Source: Escherichia coli | GTDB lineage: Bacteria; Pseudomonadota; Gammaproteobacteria; Enterobacterales; Enterobacteriaceae | Length of the DNA stretch: 64,000 bases | Reading direction: 5' to 3' (one strand) | Assembly (NCBI RefSeq): GCF_011045215.1 | Contig: NZ_CP049202.1 | Part shown: positions 20,627 to 28,906 of the stretch, piece by piece | Layout of the letters: each line of letters starts with the position of its first letter | Position numbering within the stretch: the stretch's first letter is position 1 | The notes under the pieces: model-generated | What the model was told of the DNA's origin: nothing | The model's input: only the letters and a program-made list of their open reading frames with translations | Databases searched by the model: none | Made by a program: the position numbers and the translations under genes

Positions 20627-20848
20627 GTGATGTCATCTCAACTTCAGAACTGTGTTGATTGTGGTAAAGCATTAAGTCGAACAGCCACAACGTGCGGGAA
20701 TTGCAGCTCAACGGACCCTTTTGGAAAAAAACGGCGCAGTGATCGCTTTTACCAGTGGTTTGTAGGGCTGTTTATTACGGCTATTATTATTGCTGGCGGA
20801 TTATGGTACATGGGGCTTCTTGACGTACCGGGATTACTACTCAGATAA
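20627..20848 (+). CDS. Zinc-ribbon plus C-terminal TM protein, 73 aa, antisense to the tra operon
   Basis: CVDCG...CGNC motif. GGAG lies 8 nt before the ATG. Hydrophobic C-terminus FVGLFITAIIIAGGLWYMGLL. Confidence 0.5.
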   Translation: MMSSQLQNCVDCGKALSRTATTCGNCSSTDPFGKKRRSDRFYQWFVGLFITAIIIAGGLWYMGLLDVPGLLLR

Positions 20849-21217
20849 CGACTTCAGTAACGATATCAGTGTTCTGAAATCGGCACATAACGAGTGACGA
20901 CAATACCGGTTATACCAGTAATGAGGGGTGTCGGGCTGAAGCCTGAAACAGAGCTGAAACTCACTGTTAAAAGCCCCCTTCACCGACCATCCCCATGCCA
21001 GACGTGGTATTGCTGATTCAGCATCCTGCCGCAGTCGCTGCTCAAGAAGGGCAGCCATTTTTACCGGACAGGCAAAGGCAATATAAGGAGGCAGCTTTGT
21101 AACAGGGAAACCATGTCCCTGACAGGAAGCATATGTGCGGAAGCCGTGAATGTTCATCGCGGCCACCAGGGCACGGATCTCCGGATCAATCTGATAATAC
21201 CCGGCAGGTAAAGTCAT
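20837..21217 (-). CDS. Hypothetical protein, 126 aa, translationally coupled to trbC
   Basis: ATGA overlap with the trbC stop. Contains ASCQGHG; no recognised family. Confidence 0.55.
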   Translation of the reverse strand: MTLPAGYYQIDPEIRALVAAMNIHGFRTYASCQGHGFPVTKLPPYIAFACPVKMAALLEQRLRQDAESAIPRLAWGWSVKGAFNSEFQLCFRLQPDTPHYWYNRYCRHSLCADFRTLISLLKSLSE

Positions 21218-21852
21218 TTTTGTTTATCTCCCGGGTTATTCAGCAACGCCCGAGCCACCTGCCGGCAGTCCCCCGTGGCGGCCACTTTCTCCAGCGCCTG
21301 GCCGACCCGCAGGTTCCCCCGGATAATGTCGTATCCCTGACTGCAGAACACCACCAGTGCCGGTACACTGCGAATGCCGTACTGTGAAAACAGCGTCGGG
21401 TCGATCTGAACACCATCAGTCGCGCCGTCTTTCACCAGGGACAGCACGGCTTCAGCGGTGGTCTTCAGGTCATTGTTCACCATGCCCCGCAGTGTGGCGG
21501 GTATACCGTAGTGCCGGGTTTCGCCCAGCATCCGTTTCAGCCCCTCTTCGGGAATGGAAAACGACACAAAATACAGGGCACCCTGCCGGGGTTTCCCGTC
21601 CTGCGAAGCCTGCTGTTTACGAACCAGCTCATCCAGAAAATGGTTATCTGAACGCTGAAGGGGGTTTTCCAGCACCAGTTTCTCCGCCCAGGCCTTCAGC
21701 TGATGGTCAGGTTTTTCACGCAGTTGTCTGCTTAAATTTTCCTGCTGCTTCAGGAACTGGCGGTTTTCAGGAGTGTTCACATTTTCTGAGGCATGAACAG
21801 TGATATGCATCCCTGCAGTCAGGGCAAAAAGCGCAAATATTTTCCAGTTCAT
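21214..21852 (-). CDS. trbC: TrbC periplasmic pilus-assembly protein, 212 aa
   Basis: Start at MNWKIFALFALTAG. Size and position as in F. Confidence 0.85.
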   Translation of the reverse strand: MNWKIFALFALTAGMHITVHASENVNTPENRQFLKQQENLSRQLREKPDHQLKAWAEKLVLENPLQRSDNHFLDELVRKQQASQDGKPRQGALYFVSFSIPEEGLKRMLGETRHYGIPATLRGMVNNDLKTTAEAVLSLVKDGATDGVQIDPTLFSQYGIRSVPALVVFCSQGYDIIRGNLRVGQALEKVAATGDCRQVARALLNNPGDKQK

Positions 21853-21879: not shown

Positions 21880-22332
21880 TTAATTACCCGTAGGGTTTTC
21901 TCTCAGTTTTTCTGCCAGTTTTAAAAAAGCATCAAATTCTTTCTGATCTGCACATATTTTACTGGCTGTAACCGACACGGTTATTCCTGATATGTTATTG
22001 GCAGAGTCTTTAACATCATTATTATGGACGGAGACATTATCGGGACTGAAAATATAAACCTTTTCTCTGGGATAATCCCTGTCCACATCCTCCCGCCACT
22101 GAATCTGTTCTTTATCAAAACGGTGATACATTATTGAGGAAAACCGGCACAGCCAGTCGTCAATGCATGACAGCTTATCCAGTAATTGTTGCGAATGACG
22201 GACCTCACTGGCAAGCTGCCGGCACTCCATAATGCACCGTGACACACCACCATTTGCATTCACAAGCGCTTTCATTTCCAGCAGAACACCCATATCAAGT
22301 ATTCTGGAGCCATATTTTATATTATTACTCAT
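21880..22332 (-). CDS. Hypothetical soluble protein, 150 aa (cargo between traU and trbC)
   Basis: AT-rich ORF overlapping the upstream 116-aa ORF by 8 nt. No recognised motif. Confidence 0.5.
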   Translation of the reverse strand: MSNNIKYGSRILDMGVLLEMKALVNANGGVSRCIMECRQLASEVRHSQQLLDKLSCIDDWLCRFSSIMYHRFDKEQIQWREDVDRDYPREKVYIFSPDNVSVHNNDVKDSANNISGITVSVTASKICADQKEFDAFLKLAEKLRENPTGN

Positions 22333-22660
22333 TACATCCTCCTCTGTTTTTGTTTACACACTTACCTGGCATAAACGCATCAGAGCACAAATATTTAAAA
22401 AACACAGCAGCAAAAGCACACACAAATGCAGCTTTCAGATATAGCCGGACCAGAAACATTTTCCCTGACATATCTGACTGTTGCCATTCATAAATAACCT
22501 CACTGAGGACACTATCAGGAACAAAATAAAACAATATTGCAGGTGCCATTACCAGATTAAAAGGAAACCATTTTAATGGTTCATTTATCAGCCGGATAAG
22601 CACACAACCTGTTCTTTTTAAATTATGTGTGTATTTACTTTTTATCATCTCAATTTTCAT
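22325..22660 (-). CDS. Hypothetical two-TM membrane protein (about 111 aa)
   Basis: ORF 22325..22675. The ATG at 22660 has SD GAGAGGAA. Begins just after the traU stop. Confidence 0.5.
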   Translation of the reverse strand: MKIEMIKSKYTHNLKRTGCVLIRLINEPLKWFPFNLVMAPAILFYFVPDSVLSEVIYEWQQSDMSGKMFLVRLYLKAAFVCAFAAVFFKYLCSDAFMPGKCVNKNRGGCNE

Positions 22661-22688
22661 AGATATTCCTCTCATTTGTTAACTCGAT

Positions 22689-23681
22689 TTACAGGAAGAC
22701 ACAGTTACGTTTACGCCACATCAGGTAGCCGAAGTTTTTCTTTGTGTTGGGCGGATTTTTCCCGGTTTCCCAGCGGGTCACGCTGCGCCCGAACGGGTGG
22801 CACTGTCCGCTGTCCGGGTACATATTCACCATCTGGTAACGCCAGCGTTCTTTGGGCAGGATTGGGGACGGATATTCATTACAGACGGCGTTATTTTTCC
22901 CGATGGTTTCCATAATCATGCCCTGACGGTGCAGCTTGAACGCCATGCGTTCACTGACCAGCAGGGAGGACTGCAACGGACTGGACTCATTACTCACCCA
23001 GCCATTGAACGGGTACATGCTGCCCTGCGAGCCGGCACACCAGAACAGAACATCGAGAGGCATATTAAAGGCGCTGGCAATCGCATCTGCTGCACAGGCC
23101 CCCTGTGCTATCGGATTGGCAAAGATGACAGCTTCCGGATTGAGAATGGTGGTCAGGCTGCTGTCCGTCCAGGTGGGGTCAATTTCAGAAAGATAAGCGA
23201 TATCCAGGTCACCACCTTCCAGACAGCCCAGCGATGTGATGATGTTAAGCCAGTACGTCAGCGGGTATTTGTACCAGTGAACGTGATAGAACGCCCCGTT
23301 CACCTGCTTCTCATCCTTTTTCGCCGTTCCCTGTGCCGTTTTACCAAAAGCCGGCAGGCTGAAGCCCAGGTTCACCATGCATCCCGGTGACCGGGTGACG
23401 TCCGTCAGCGCCATCGGCTCCCAGTAACCAATGGCCAGCCCGATACGCCTGAACAGCGGCGGCGGTGCCGGACAAATCTGAATGGGCATCGACGGGTTCG
23501 CCGTGTCGGGGACCTTACCCTGACTGACTTTGATACTGCCCAGCGAGAGCGGGAAAATACAGCTCCAGCAGATATCCGTGATCGGGTTTACAAAACGCCC
23601 CTCACAGGCAGAATCCGCAGACGCCGCAGGGACATGACCGGCGAGAAGGAATAACATCAGCAGCCACAGGCTTCGCTTCAT
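22689..23681 (-). CDS. traU: TraU pilus-assembly protein, 330 aa
   Basis: Signal peptide, Cys-rich. Size and position as in F. Confidence 0.92.
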   Translation of the reverse strand: MKRSLWLLMLFLLAGHVPAASADSACEGRFVNPITDICWSCIFPLSLGSIKVSQGKVPDTANPSMPIQICPAPPPLFRRIGLAIGYWEPMALTDVTRSPGCMVNLGFSLPAFGKTAQGTAKKDEKQVNGAFYHVHWYKYPLTYWLNIITSLGCLEGGDLDIAYLSEIDPTWTDSSLTTILNPEAVIFANPIAQGACAADAIASAFNMPLDVLFWCAGSQGSMYPFNGWVSNESSPLQSSLLVSERMAFKLHRQGMIMETIGKNNAVCNEYPSPILPKERWRYQMVNMYPDSGQCHPFGRSVTRWETGKNPPNTKKNFGYLMWRKRNCVFL

Positions 23682-24687: not shown

Positions 24688-24770
24688 AATAATGCCCCTG
24701 TTTTCTCTGTTTCCTCTTTGCGGTAATATGCTTCCCTGATTTTCAGGTAAGTTAAAAAGGTGCGTTTTAT

Positions 24771-25878
24771 ATGACGAAAAAAATCCTCTTATTTTCCCTG
24801 ATTTTTATTTTTAGTATCACCGGCACTTTTTCTCTTATGATAAACGGCAAACAGAAAAAAAGTGCAGATAAAATCATTCCCGCAATCAACGCTAAATATA
24901 ATAATAAATGGCTTACACACAGATTAATAAAAATGGACTATGATAATGGAACGGCTTTATCTGTTATTCAGAAAGCATGGAATAACACCGAATACTTCAT
25001 CCTCTCAGCCAGAAAAAAAATGCCAGTCAGCCACAACCACTCTTAATTTTCTTTACTGCACAAATGATTTGCTTGGCGAAATGTTTCCTTATAAGGAATC
25101 CAATATGGTCAGCCCGGCATATGCCAGTCAGTTCTCTGATTGCGATCTGAATGTCTATCTTCTCATTGACGCAGCAAAAGAATCTGGCAGGCAGATTGAG
25201 ATCATATTCGCCCCCTTCCACGCTTTTATTTCATATATTGATGATAATAATGCAAGAGCATACTGGGAAACAACCGCCAACCATAATAAAGGTTCTGTTG
25301 CGGATTTAAATGATAATCACTGGTATCAAAAAACATTCAATAAATTCTATTATGTTCCTCGTAGTGAAAATTACATAGAATCACTCTACTCTGTACTGAT
25401 TGCAAATAGTGTAGACTCATCACATAAAAAAGAAATATACAACAATCTTAAGCCGGAAATAAAAAAGACACCATTAGCCTATGATCTGTACTACAGCATG
25501 AAAAATGAAATCTCGTCTCAGGATGCCGAACAGATTAATCTTTTGTTAAGAGAAGACATTACCTCATCATATAAACAACTTCTTCTTACCGGATACTTCA
25601 TTAAAAACAACAATACAGAAGCAGCCCAAAAAATCATTGACAACATACGAGCAAAAAACTGTAAATCAGACTGCATTAGGTTTAAGAAAAAAGTGTACTG
25701 GTACTTTTTTCCATCATATCTGATCTCTCAATATGCATCGGAATTTGGCGTCACACTATCCCTTGAAGATATATATTATTATTACGCATTCAATATTATC
25801 ATTATTCTGTTTAGTTCCCTTTTATTTTTGCCTAAAAGCAGAGATAAGAACAAGAAAAGGCGTGAGAACAATAAATAA
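24771..25878 (+). pseudogene. Frameshifted gene for a secreted/membrane transglutaminase-like (papain-fold) plus TPR-like protein; about 368 aa if restored
   Basis: ORFs 24771..25046 and 24940..25878 join if the A8 tract at 25013-25020 were A7. N-terminal signal/TM and C-terminal TM are present. The segment SDCDLNVYLLIDAAKESGRQIEIIFAPFHAFISYIDD resembles transglut_core2 (SirB1-like) proteins. Confidence 0.5.
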
Positions 25879-26238
25879 CAGAGCAGGCACACCCCCATCC
25901 ATAAGGAAACTCAGGGGGAGACTGCAGGTTACAGGCACCATGATATAGCATCCCATCACGATCAAAGGGCGATGACGACACAGTTCTGTATATTCATATA
26001 ACCCGGTTCTGCCATATAAATCCCTGACAAGCAAAGACGGAGCAATCATAAACAAAACGCTTACAATGGCATAAATCATCAGCACATATTTTGTTTCTCT
26101 CAGAAATGGTTCCGGTGTATTTATTTCTGATTCAACAAAACGCTCATACCAGTACAGAAACAGGTCGCCACAGGCCACACTGTTAAGGATAAAAAATAAG
26201 ACAATATCAGATACCTTCTTTATATGACAAAATTTCAT
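25822..26238 (-). CDS. Hypothetical 4-TM membrane protein, 138 aa, immediately downstream of traC
   Basis: ATG at 26238 with SD AAGGGG. Its 3' end overlaps the convergent + strand ORF by 57 nt. Confidence 0.55.
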   Translation of the reverse strand: MKFCHIKKVSDIVLFFILNSVACGDLFLYWYERFVESEINTPEPFLRETKYVLMIYAIVSVLFMIAPSLLVRDLYGRTGLYEYTELCRHRPLIVMGCYIMVPVTCSLPLSFLMDGGVPALLFIVLTPFLVLISAFRQK

Positions 26239-26260
26239 ATATACCCCTTGTGACCAACCC

Positions 26261-28906
26261 TTAACCCCAGTTTCCTGACATTCGTTCGCCGGACATTTCA
26301 TGCTCTTTTAACCAGGCTTCCAGCGAAGCCATCTCCGGCCCTGACTTCTTCCACGCCAGCTGCCACACCGCCTCATGAATACTCAGGCCCTCTTTACGCT
26401 TCTGCTGCACAAACTCAAAATCCGGGCCGTCGGAGCTGTACATGGCACGGCTTAACGGGTCCACAAACAGACGGTGCCAGGAGGAATGGTTTTCCACCTG
26501 CAGCAGGAAGGAACTGAACCACTGGTCTTTAGCCGCACCAAACTTGCCAATCATGTCCCGCTGCAGTGGCAGGAACTGGTCCGGGAATAACTGGTTATAT
26601 TTCGCGAACTCCTTCGCACTCTGTTTGAGGATAATTTTGTAGGAGGAGTTACCCCATGCCGCACGGGCCGCACTGGAGGCCTTGTCAGAGTCAAAGTCGA
26701 CGATGTTCTGTGTGATGGTGATATAGGCACCGGTATGACGGCGACAGGTGCGGTAACCTTTTTGAATAAACTCACCGACTTTACGATTTTTGAAGTCCAG
26801 CAGACGCCAGCCTTCATCAATGACGTTCAGTTTTTTGAGAGTACGCGGCGTGCGGTACATCCTGTTCTCGATGTAGATAATCAGGGAGAACATCACCGCA
26901 ACCAGCAGGGACGGACGGTCTTCCAGTCCACCCAGCTCCAGCACCACCATTCTGGCATCATCCCGCAGGGACGGTTCATCAGAGTTAAAATACCGGCCGT
27001 AAGTGCCGCCAGCGGTATATTGATCCAGAAGGACAATCATTTCATCCAGACGGCTGCGGATGGTCGGAGACTCGACATACTGGTCGTTATCACGGGCGTT
27101 TTTCAGGAAATCCACCACATCATCGATGCGCGCCTTATTCTTTTTAGCCAGCCAGGAGGCCCTGACCGCCTGCAGCAGCAGACCTTCATGTACTTCATCC
27201 AGGTTACCGTTGGGGCTGGCCATCACCGACAACTGGTCACGGACACGCTCCGCTGACTGGTCAATATCAGTGATGTTCGCAAACGGGTTAAAACGCAGGG
27301 TTTCACCGTCCAGATATACGCCCCCCATGTTCTCACACAGGGACTTGTAGCCATCCCCCATGTCGAACACCACGGCAAAGCCCCCGGAGTCCAGCACGCT
27401 GCGGATAAGTGGCTGTATCAGTCCGGTTTTACCGGCCCCGGAGGTGCCACAGACCGCCATGTTGTAGTTGGTGTTATTCATCCCCTTAAAGAAGATATCG
27501 ATAAACGCCAGCTGGTTACGGTAGGTGGGCGCCAGCAGACCTGCCGGTGTCAGGGGATTATCCGCCACTAACGGCATCAGGTTGGCCACATTAAAACTCT
27601 CTGCCCGCTGTACCACTCCGGCCTCTTTCAGCTGTTTAAACAGCCCTTTCCCGGCCATAAAGGGCAGGCAGGTCAGGAAATTGCGCATGTGGTTAAAGCG
27701 CGGTGAAATCAGCTCAAAACCGTTTTTACGAAAGCTGTTCAGGATGTCCTGCTCCACTTCCAGTGCCGTTTCATTATTGTCCCTGCAGAAGGCTGTGATG
27801 TTGAGGAAGTAGGACACGACAGAAGACTGGCCGGAGCCCAGCCGCTGGCGCAGTTCCCCCCACTCCTTCGCCTCCTTTTCAACTGACGGAAACCATTTGG
27901 CATAGGAGGTCTTCGACTTTTTCTCCAGGTCCATGTACTTCAGGTTGGCTTCGCTGTGGGTTTTCACCTGGTCTTCCACCACCAGAGTCAACGTCAGGAT
28001 GAACGGGCAGGAAATGGACATTTCCGGGTTCAGCAGATTGCTGTAGTTGTCGGCCATGTTCCACAGGAAGGCGATTTCCGGGTTACGGGCCAGATGGAAA
28101 TTCAGGATGCGGGCCGTGCTGTTCCTGCCGTTCTCACGCAGGCCCAGCGTCAGGTAATCAGCCCGGACTTTCAGGTCAAAACTGTCCTCCACACACTGAT
28201 AATTCAGATCAGAATACGGATCCAGCTGACGTCTTTTCGGGTACAGAGAGTCCGGATTATGGTTAATCATCTCCCCGACAATCTCGATGAAAGCCTGTGC
28301 ATCCACTGTCTGTGTGGTGATTTTTGCGCCGTGAAAAGAGGCACGGATGATTTTCACCAGATTTTCCATTTCCAGAATGTCAGCCCGGCTTTTTTTCTTC
28401 GAGGGAGAACAGTACGAGATAAACACCCGGTAATGGCGCAGGGTCAGGGGCAGATTCATCCCCTCCGGCAGCGGGAACTGTGTCGCTGCCGCTTTCATAT
28501 AATAGGCACGGGTAATGGCGTTAAACCGTTCAGCCTGTTCACCTGACCAGGAGAACTCACGCAGCCCGTATTCAATCCTGTCACCAACCAGCTGACTGGA
28601 CATCAGATGGATACACAACGGAATACCGCGCGGCAGTTTGGTGCGCAGCATATGATCGAGAGCCTCCACAATGGACTCATTCGCACCATTGATGGGAATG
28701 GCTTCCAGCATAAAGCCCATCGTGGTGTCATTCATGAACAGGCCGGACTCCTGGTTGTAATCACGGTACGGCAGCAGACGGCTGAACTGCGGGAAGCTCA
28801 TCTCACCGAGGATCTGATTAGCCTGAGAGGATTCATCCGGTAATTTAAGCGCAGTCAGCAGTGAATTAACCGCCTGAGTGACGGTCTCAAGTGGGTTTTT
28901 ACTCAT
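26261..28906 (-). CDS. traC: TraC (VirB4-family) pilus-assembly ATPase, 881 aa
   Basis: Walker A GTSGAGKTG. Matches F TraC as recalled except for the last ~12 residues. Confidence 0.95.
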   Translation of the reverse strand: MSKNPLETVTQAVNSLLTALKLPDESSQANQILGEMSFPQFSRLLPYRDYNQESGLFMNDTTMGFMLEAIPINGANESIVEALDHMLRTKLPRGIPLCIHLMSSQLVGDRIEYGLREFSWSGEQAERFNAITRAYYMKAAATQFPLPEGMNLPLTLRHYRVFISYCSPSKKKSRADILEMENLVKIIRASFHGAKITTQTVDAQAFIEIVGEMINHNPDSLYPKRRQLDPYSDLNYQCVEDSFDLKVRADYLTLGLRENGRNSTARILNFHLARNPEIAFLWNMADNYSNLLNPEMSISCPFILTLTLVVEDQVKTHSEANLKYMDLEKKSKTSYAKWFPSVEKEAKEWGELRQRLGSGQSSVVSYFLNITAFCRDNNETALEVEQDILNSFRKNGFELISPRFNHMRNFLTCLPFMAGKGLFKQLKEAGVVQRAESFNVANLMPLVADNPLTPAGLLAPTYRNQLAFIDIFFKGMNNTNYNMAVCGTSGAGKTGLIQPLIRSVLDSGGFAVVFDMGDGYKSLCENMGGVYLDGETLRFNPFANITDIDQSAERVRDQLSVMASPNGNLDEVHEGLLLQAVRASWLAKKNKARIDDVVDFLKNARDNDQYVESPTIRSRLDEMIVLLDQYTAGGTYGRYFNSDEPSLRDDARMVVLELGGLEDRPSLLVAVMFSLIIYIENRMYRTPRTLKKLNVIDEGWRLLDFKNRKVGEFIQKGYRTCRRHTGAYITITQNIVDFDSDKASSAARAAWGNSSYKIILKQSAKEFAKYNQLFPDQFLPLQRDMIGKFGAAKDQWFSSFLLQVENHSSWHRLFVDPLSRAMYSSDGPDFEFVQQKRKEGLSIHEAVWQLAWKKSGPEMASLEAWLKEHEMSGERMSGNWG

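Follow-up and report, generated by a model that had tools for sequence, protein, structure and literature searches.

The window, by which we mean the whole 64,000-nucleotide stretch of Escherichia coli DNA analyzed here, carries an F-like tra operon on its minus strand, and the slot between traU and trbC is occupied by a cassette of two co-oriented genes, designated A and B (Table 1). The reading frames of A and B share 8 nt (22325-22332, ATGAGTAA), and trbC starts 27 nt past the gene B stop. In the F plasmid itself (NC_002483), the slot between the end of traU (78369) and the start of trbC (78378) is only 8 bp long and holds no cassette. The GC contents of A and B (0.351 and 0.413, respectively) are well below those of the flanking traU and trbC (0.558 and 0.551, respectively), and the GC content of the cassette falls in the lowest 8% of the 796-nt windows of the stretch. 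An earlier note had described two ORFs overlapping by 8 nt in a traU-trbC slot that it gave as essentially empty in F, with a composition more AT-rich than that of traU and trbC; these observations were correct in every detail. Flanking repeats, which would be the signature of a mobile element, were not found around the cassette beyond chance.

Table 1. Positions of the cassette genes, their translation signals and the flanking genes in the window.
Feature	Positions	Strand	Remarks
traU	22689..23681	-	upstream flank; Pfam TraU, E 8e-110; stop 28 nt before the gene A ATG
Shine-Dalgarno-like GAGAGGAA	22666..22673	-	upstream of the gene A ATG at 22660
gene A	22325..22660 (22325..22675 from the upstream ATG)	-	ORF; 111 aa (116 aa from the upstream ATG)
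translational-coupling junction (predicted)	22325..22344	-	Shine-Dalgarno sequence of gene B, GAGGAGGA, at 22337-22344 within the last codons of gene A
gene B	21880..22332	-	ORF; 150 aa
trbC	21214..21852 (longer ORF to 21870)	-	downstream flank; Pfam TrbC_Ftype, E 5.5e-19; start as in RefSeq

The cassette lies on the same strand as the genes on either side, at a distance of about 27 nt from each, and has Shine-Dalgarno sites of its own. No promoter or terminator at the cassette rose above the shuffled background. These features are consistent with transcription of A and B as part of the tra operon, which appears to be the case. Within the cassette, the ATG of gene B (22330-22332) overlaps the end of gene A, which reads ...AAT GAG TAA with the stop at 22325-22327. 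Because the Shine-Dalgarno sequence of B lies inside the 3' end of A and the ATG of B overlaps the stop of A, translation of B is predicted to be coupled to translation of A. The overlap, or a near-abutment of the two genes, is kept in relatives L013, L016, L017, L018 and L019.

Products of genes A and B and their relatives

Translation of gene A most likely begins at the second ATG, at 22660, and yields a protein of 111 aa. A Shine-Dalgarno-like sequence stands ahead of this codon (Table 1), and RefSeq gives the same start in NZ_CP010123, a plasmid that is 99.8% identical. From its N-terminus, the A protein consists of a tail rich in Lys and Arg, a hydrophobic segment of 17 residues (~32-48), an acidic loop of 19 residues, a second hydrophobic segment (~68-91) and a basic C-terminal tail. 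By the positive-inside rule and the distribution of charge, A is predicted to form a small inner-membrane hairpin in the N-in/C-in orientation. In the family alignment the invariant positions lie in a region that begins where the first hydrophobic segment ends and takes in the whole loop (FYFxPD...W..D..K); the acidic loop, which is predicted to be periplasmic, is among the most constrained parts of the protein.

Gene B encodes neither a hydrophobic segment nor a signal peptide (the highest Kyte-Doolittle mean over 19 residues was 0.86), and its product is predicted to be soluble and cytoplasmic. Hydropathy thus bears out the pairing of a membrane protein, with two hydrophobic segments, and a soluble protein, with none, that had been proposed from the translations alone. 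An AlphaFold2 model of B, made from an alignment of both clades described below, reached a pLDDT of 70.2 and shows a helical bundle (~4-93) followed by a linker modeled with low confidence (96-116) and, near the C-terminus, a further helix (130-144). A zinc site was considered for B and set aside: of four Cys residues that are invariant in the clade of 150-aa proteins, the sister clade retains only two, C37 and C127.

Gene A is a homologue of an unnamed 'hypothetical' ORF that lies directly 3' of traU in R100 and pSLT. The tblastn alignment of A to the R100-type gene covered 88% of the query at 56-57% identity (E about 1e-24); the identities to the other A clades were 40% and 35%. The homologues in R100 (WP_000224416, 101 aa), in pSLT-type plasmids (102 aa, 'OrfF', UniProt Q93GM9 'Conjugative transfer protein') and in IncFIA/FII plasmids (WP_000412447) belong to families whose source names are only 'hypothetical protein' or, by context, 'conjugative transfer protein'. 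The ORF of R100 and pSLT resembles A in its two hydrophobic segments, its loop motif and its position directly after traU. It differs in that it stands alone, without B, and in having no C-terminal ...KNRGGCNE tail, the coding sequence of which supplies the ribosome-binding site of B in the window. The possibility, raised beforehand, that the pair maps to known tra accessory genes therefore turned out to be half right: A, as an annotated ORF (WP_000224416 in R100, 'OrfF' in the pSLT type), belongs to a family that is already annotated but is unnamed and unstudied.

Distant homologues of B were found in IncFIA/FII plasmids of E. coli and Klebsiella, namely WP_015059014 (173 aa) and a protein of 259 aa (P0037/P0066). 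They share 30-36% identity with B (HMM E about 1e-50) and occupy the same slot with an A-family gene upstream, but differ from B in being fused to a second A-type hairpin or in retaining a remnant of one. In the 173-aa type, this remnant is the end of the hairpin, kept at the N-terminus. The 259-aa protein (P0037/P0066 and others), recovered in an exhaustive profile search, is an A-type hairpin fused in frame to a B-type domain. It was present on more than 70 contigs from NCBI, JGI, ENA and Logan and lies in the traU-trbC slot after a further, free-standing copy of A. The fusion argues that A and B are linked functionally; by the Rosetta-stone reasoning, B would lie on the cytoplasmic, C-terminal side of A and the two would work together. 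The locus L009 (3590-4780, plus strand) illustrates the tandem A-family copies, of which the first is free-standing (103 aa) and the second is fused to the B domain (259 aa). RefSeq starts the L009 fusion ORF at an internal Met within the second hydrophobic segment, giving 177 aa, and this is probably a mis-called start.

Searches with Pfam, NCBIfam, PHROGs and PADLOC returned nothing significant for A, for B or for the whole families, in agreement with the earlier note, which had recognized no motif in either protein. One match to E1-E2 in PADLOC-DB 2.0 (E 7e-4) was set aside as chance since it was seen in just 3 of 35 family members; A had no match. Comparison with PDB sequences and Foldseek searches of PDB and BFVD gave nothing informative for the cassette proteins. 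The profile and structure searches that had been recommended thus gave no function by sequence, profile or fold, and none of Pfam, NCBIfam, PHROGs, PADLOC, PDB sequences or folds gave a significant similarity to a toxin, antitoxin or immunity family. Among the ORFs of the window, the A and B HMMs matched only themselves, with no paralogue or named Tra or Trb homologue, and neither protein was similar to the TraS or TraT of the window. A word-indexed search of 5.8 billion proteins yielded 17 clusters with one single query, 18 with the other and 91 with a profile, and an exhaustive HMM search of 1.84 billion representatives yielded 14 matches. Apart from records that are likely mislabelled or contaminant and three long repetitive proteins, the matches were enterobacterial, and none was annotated. 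In the full-text literature we found neither experimental data on any member of the A and B families nor a paper on this ORF; the survey 'Five Shades of F' took its queries from F genes only. To judge from the literature searched, gene B, its fusion to A and the recombination of the two as a unit, reported below, have apparently gone undescribed.

Distribution of the cassette

By tblastn against PLSDB, A was found in 1,975 plasmids, B in 669 and TraU in at least 5,000. Nearly all of the plasmids with A or B are typed as conjugative (1892/1975 and 628/669, respectively). An A homologue follows traU directly in R100, in pSLT-type plasmids and in IncFIA/FII plasmids of E. coli and Klebsiella, in nearly all loci examined. 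The A-B pair also precedes trbC in backbones whose TraU is just 65% identical to that of the window. In one such backbone (L016, 1542-2590), traP and a gene for a 147-aa protein lie between traU and the pair, and in L017 and L019 (654-878) traR lies between trbI and traW, with the pair still 5' of trbC. Each B gene of the 150-aa type that was examined has an A gene directly upstream, either overlapping or no more than 14 nt away.

To describe the states of the slot, 60 entries were drawn at even intervals from the 4,387 PLSDB matches to the slot and its flanks; in 45 of these, both flanks aligned. The slot was empty, as in F, in 20 of the 45 (about 44%) and held A only in 16; A was accompanied by B of the 173-aa type in five, a Walker-A gene preceded A and B in three, and the arrangement of the window was seen once. 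The A-only alleles of R100, pSLT and other sampled relatives are each present on at least 1000 contigs. Truncated remnants of B are common as well, on more than 100 contigs each. Among 5,426 complete E. coli genomes, the B part was found in 226 and this combination of A and B in 22, and 238 of the 239 places in these genomes are on plasmids. No match to A or B was found in phage records, and the GTDB representative genomes gave no match for B and two contigs, likely contaminants, for A. The pair, whose co-occurrence outside plasmids had been put forward as a check, was found only in F-like tra operons in the collections searched, and neither a defence island nor any varied genomic context was found for it. 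Family members (proteins P0002 and P0077, loci L022 and L023) are deposited as Staphylococcus aureus, Acinetobacter baumannii, Acinetobacter idrijaensis (a 440-bp contig) and an Oxalobacter MAG. Because their sequences are nearly identical to enterobacterial plasmid genes, they most likely reflect contamination or mis-binning and not the true host range.

The commonest arrangement that carries B is that of NZ_CP117617 (L002, 2033-2503, minus strand), in which B is ~97% identical and A is frameshifted ~60 residues into the part homologous to A. An intact A of 126 aa is present in other plasmids that share the arrangement (clusters P0025 and P0029). Extra small genes lie upstream of A within the slot in L002 (2352-2855, minus strand) and L003 (2522-2899, minus strand). 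One type encodes a Walker-A protein of 154-167 aa, annotated 'ATP-binding protein', with a weak match to AAA_14 (E 0.001), and another encodes a 125-aa protein with about four hydrophobic segments and a weak match to DUF2162. Since relatives carry such additional genes between traU and trbC, the slot behaves as an insertion hotspot.

These slot states bear on the proposal that the cassette is a toxin-antitoxin, toxin-immunity or abortive-infection pair, the last two of which the earlier note had raised. In such a pair one protein, for example the membrane protein, would be toxic and the other would neutralize it. The proposal drew on the combination of a small membrane protein with a soluble partner encoded by overlapping genes, here with predicted translational coupling, and it gains from the AT-rich, cargo-like composition and from the other small genes gathered in the same slot in relatives, the Walker-A protein and the four-segment membrane protein among them. 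Against this, A is found stably alone in R100, in pSLT and in the A-only slots of the sample, intact B stands beside a frameshifted A in NZ_CP117617, and truncated B is widespread, which implies that neither gene needs the other for viability. In the sister clade the supposed toxin and its antidote would be a single polypeptide, and in no collection searched was the pair found outside F-like tra operons. No promoter of its own is evident at the cassette, and repression is the normal state of most operons of this kind. The cassette also matches no toxin, antitoxin or defence profile. We therefore regard a toxin-immunity or abortive-infection module as poorly supported and very improbable.

Constraint, exchange and candidate roles

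Homologues of the A and B proteins extend down to 56-59% identity, and to 30-38% in the sister clade. Pairwise dN/dS ratios (Nei-Gojobori) from codon alignments of eight loci were 0.19-0.49 for A and 0.18-0.45 for B, compared to 0.03-0.24 for traU and 0.10-0.41 for trbC, and they stayed clearly below 1 across synonymous distances up to saturation. When the genes were divided into segments, all ratios were below 1, and constraint was strongest in the helical core of B (0.19), the C-terminal tail of A (0.22) and the loop of A (0.26). A and B are genuine genes under purifying selection. With ratios of 0.18-0.49 and homologues at 56-59% identity, the concern that either ORF might lack conservation or a coding signature is ruled out.

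In the same eight loci, the pairwise identities of A and B were strongly correlated with each other (r = 0.85) and poorly correlated with those of TraU (r = 0.24 and 0.09, respectively), while TraU and TrbC followed each other closely (0.97). Relative to the window, L007 has a TraU that is 100% identical but A and B that are only 38% and 30% identical. In L016, by comparison, TraU is 65% identical while A is 56% and B 70% identical. In L003 the TraU and B identities are 99% and that of A is 64%, with the breakpoint of this type of exchange within the 3' end of A. Moreover, the cassette is present or absent among near-identical backbones. The decoupling of A and B identities from those of TraU shows that the cassette is exchanged by recombination among F-like backbones, with A and B passed on together irrespective of the surrounding tra genes. 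The interpretation given in the earlier note is supported in part. The description of the cassette as an operon hitchhiker is borne out by its AT-rich composition, its presence or absence in close relatives, the divergence of A and B identities from that of TraU and the lack of a Pfam, NCBIfam, PHROGs or PADLOC model for either protein; the toxin-immunity or abortive-infection role attached to that description is not supported.

Alternatively, A and B might be passenger genes without a current role, left over from foreign DNA that is exchanged between F-like plasmids while it slowly decays. The frequent absences, frameshifts and truncations point in this direction, as do the lack of a recognizable domain in either protein and a constraint that is relaxed compared to that of traU (dN/dS 0.2-0.5 and 0.03-0.24, respectively). 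A decaying remnant is difficult to reconcile with ratios that remain clearly below 1 up to synonymous saturation, with frames, junction and gene order that persist where the proteins are only 30-58% identical and where the TraU of the backbones is 65% identical, or with the conserved motifs in both proteins. We consider it quite unlikely that the genes are mere passengers.

The explanation that we favor, tentatively and with a probability of roughly 40%, is that A and B are an accessory module of the F-type transfer apparatus, located at the inner membrane, dispensable and variable between lineages. No search gave a function, and this reading accordingly rests on anatomy and context. It is supported by the fixed slot, the restriction to conjugative F-like plasmids, purifying selection, the co-variation of A and B, the fusion and the predicted topology. 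Several results weigh against it: homology to a named Tra or Trb protein was not found in Pfam, in NCBIfam or among the ORFs of the window; the AT-rich composition and backbone-independent recombination are as expected of foreign cargo; F and about 44% of the sampled relatives do without the cassette; and frameshifted A and truncated B genes are frequent. The structure of the two genes, their conservation and their fixed position in the tra operon are observed; from these we infer that A and B may interact, act on the T4SS and have an effect there.

In such a module, A would serve as a membrane anchor and B would most likely be docked at its cytoplasmic face, since relatives encode the hairpin and the soluble domain as one polypeptide. 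A and B would be expressed solely from the long tra transcript, and so alongside the pilus and the transfer machinery, since no promoter or terminator of their own stood above background. F and many close relatives transfer without the cassette, so the module most likely would modulate the apparatus at the inner membrane and not build it. Candidate targets are pilus assembly or retraction, mating-pair behavior and coupling to a host factor.

The module would in this respect resemble the small, non-essential Trb proteins of F. TrbA, TrbE, TrbF, TrbJ, TrbI and TraP of F are short, mostly inner-membrane proteins whose genes lie between those for pilus assembly, are co-transcribed in the tra operon and can be lost with little or no effect on transfer. 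The cassette shares with the named Tra and Trb accessory genes its place within the tra operon and, to judge from its strand, the short gaps, the Shine-Dalgarno sites and the lack of a terminator above background, apparently also co-transcription. It differs in having no detectable sequence relationship to the small Trb proteins or TraP, in being AT-rich, and in being missing from F.

A rival explanation is that the module is protective and would act at the inner membrane against the entry of male-specific phage, against redundant incoming plasmid DNA (an additional exclusion function) or against a co-resident competitor plasmid (fertility inhibition). Being co-expressed with the tra operon, it would be on just when the pilus-expressing cell is vulnerable, and the expression of the cassette does appear to be tied to that operon. 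A small inner-membrane architecture with two membrane segments is common to phage superinfection-exclusion and entry-exclusion proteins, and A may be likened to them by analogy. F TraS and phage T4 Imm, for instance, are inner-membrane proteins of small size, with alleles that diverge strongly from one element to another even when the elements are otherwise alike. Highly divergent alleles in near-identical backbones are typical, in F-like plasmids, of specificity genes such as traS, and the cassette shows this pattern in the window and L007 as well as presence or absence among close relatives and a foreign-looking composition. The likeness to TraS and T4 Imm is one of analogy only, with no homology to the TraS of the window or to any PHROGs or PADLOC model. 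Several points disfavor a protective role: A and B are similar neither to the TraS nor to the TraT of the window, PADLOC and PHROGs gave no match beyond the weak E1-E2 hits in 3 of 35 members, and dN/dS is well below 1 in every segment. In addition, the predicted periplasmic loop, at which an invader would be encountered, is the conserved and not the variable part of A. On balance we regard protection as possible but somewhat unlikely. The bolder claim that the A-B pair, together with the A-only gene of R100-type plasmids, is a conjugation-linked immunity or competition device embedded in tra and switched on with the pilus is doubtful.

Among Enterobacteriaceae, IncF plasmids are a major vehicle of resistance and virulence genes, and a gene of the A family is present in ~1,975 PLSDB plasmids, the textbook examples R100 and pSLT among them. 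The content of the slot 3' of traU varies between plasmids, which have no gene there, A alone, or A and B. Should the favored accessory module adjust the dynamics of the pilus, the sensitivity to phage or exclusion, some of the unexplained differences in phenotype between F-like plasmids would be accounted for, and if the protective reading were true, a previously unrecognized class of conjugation-linked immunity would be present in a large share of clinical IncF plasmids. If the cassette does nothing measurable, it is one more accessory ORF. For the present we place it among the optional accessory ORFs of the variable slots in F-like tra operons; nothing about it is mechanistically surprising yet.

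Other small genes in the operon

A second AT-rich island (24700-26300, GC 0.36) lies between trbI and traC of the window. It contains an ORF of 312 aa (24940-25878, plus strand) and an ORF of 159 aa (25822-26301, minus strand) that overlaps the 3' end of traC. In NZ_CP010123, the closest plasmid, trbI and traC overlap and have no insert. Neither ORF of this island (24940-26301) matched Pfam or PADLOC.

The slot between trbC and traN holds an ORF of 126 aa (20837-21217, minus strand) that overlaps the trbC stop by 4 nt. It had no match in Pfam, NCBIfam, PADLOC or PHROGs and is absent from F and R100. A homologue (WP_000056336, 123 aa) occupies the same slot in IncFIA/FII plasmids, where it is followed by a gene for an HNH endonuclease. 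Between traN and the 126-aa ORF, an ORF of 73 aa (20627-20848, plus strand) runs antisense to the operon, as artA does in another part of it. Its N-terminus is zinc-ribbon-like (CxxC...CxxC), with weak Pfam matches (E 0.003-0.02), and its C-terminus carries a hydrophobic segment.
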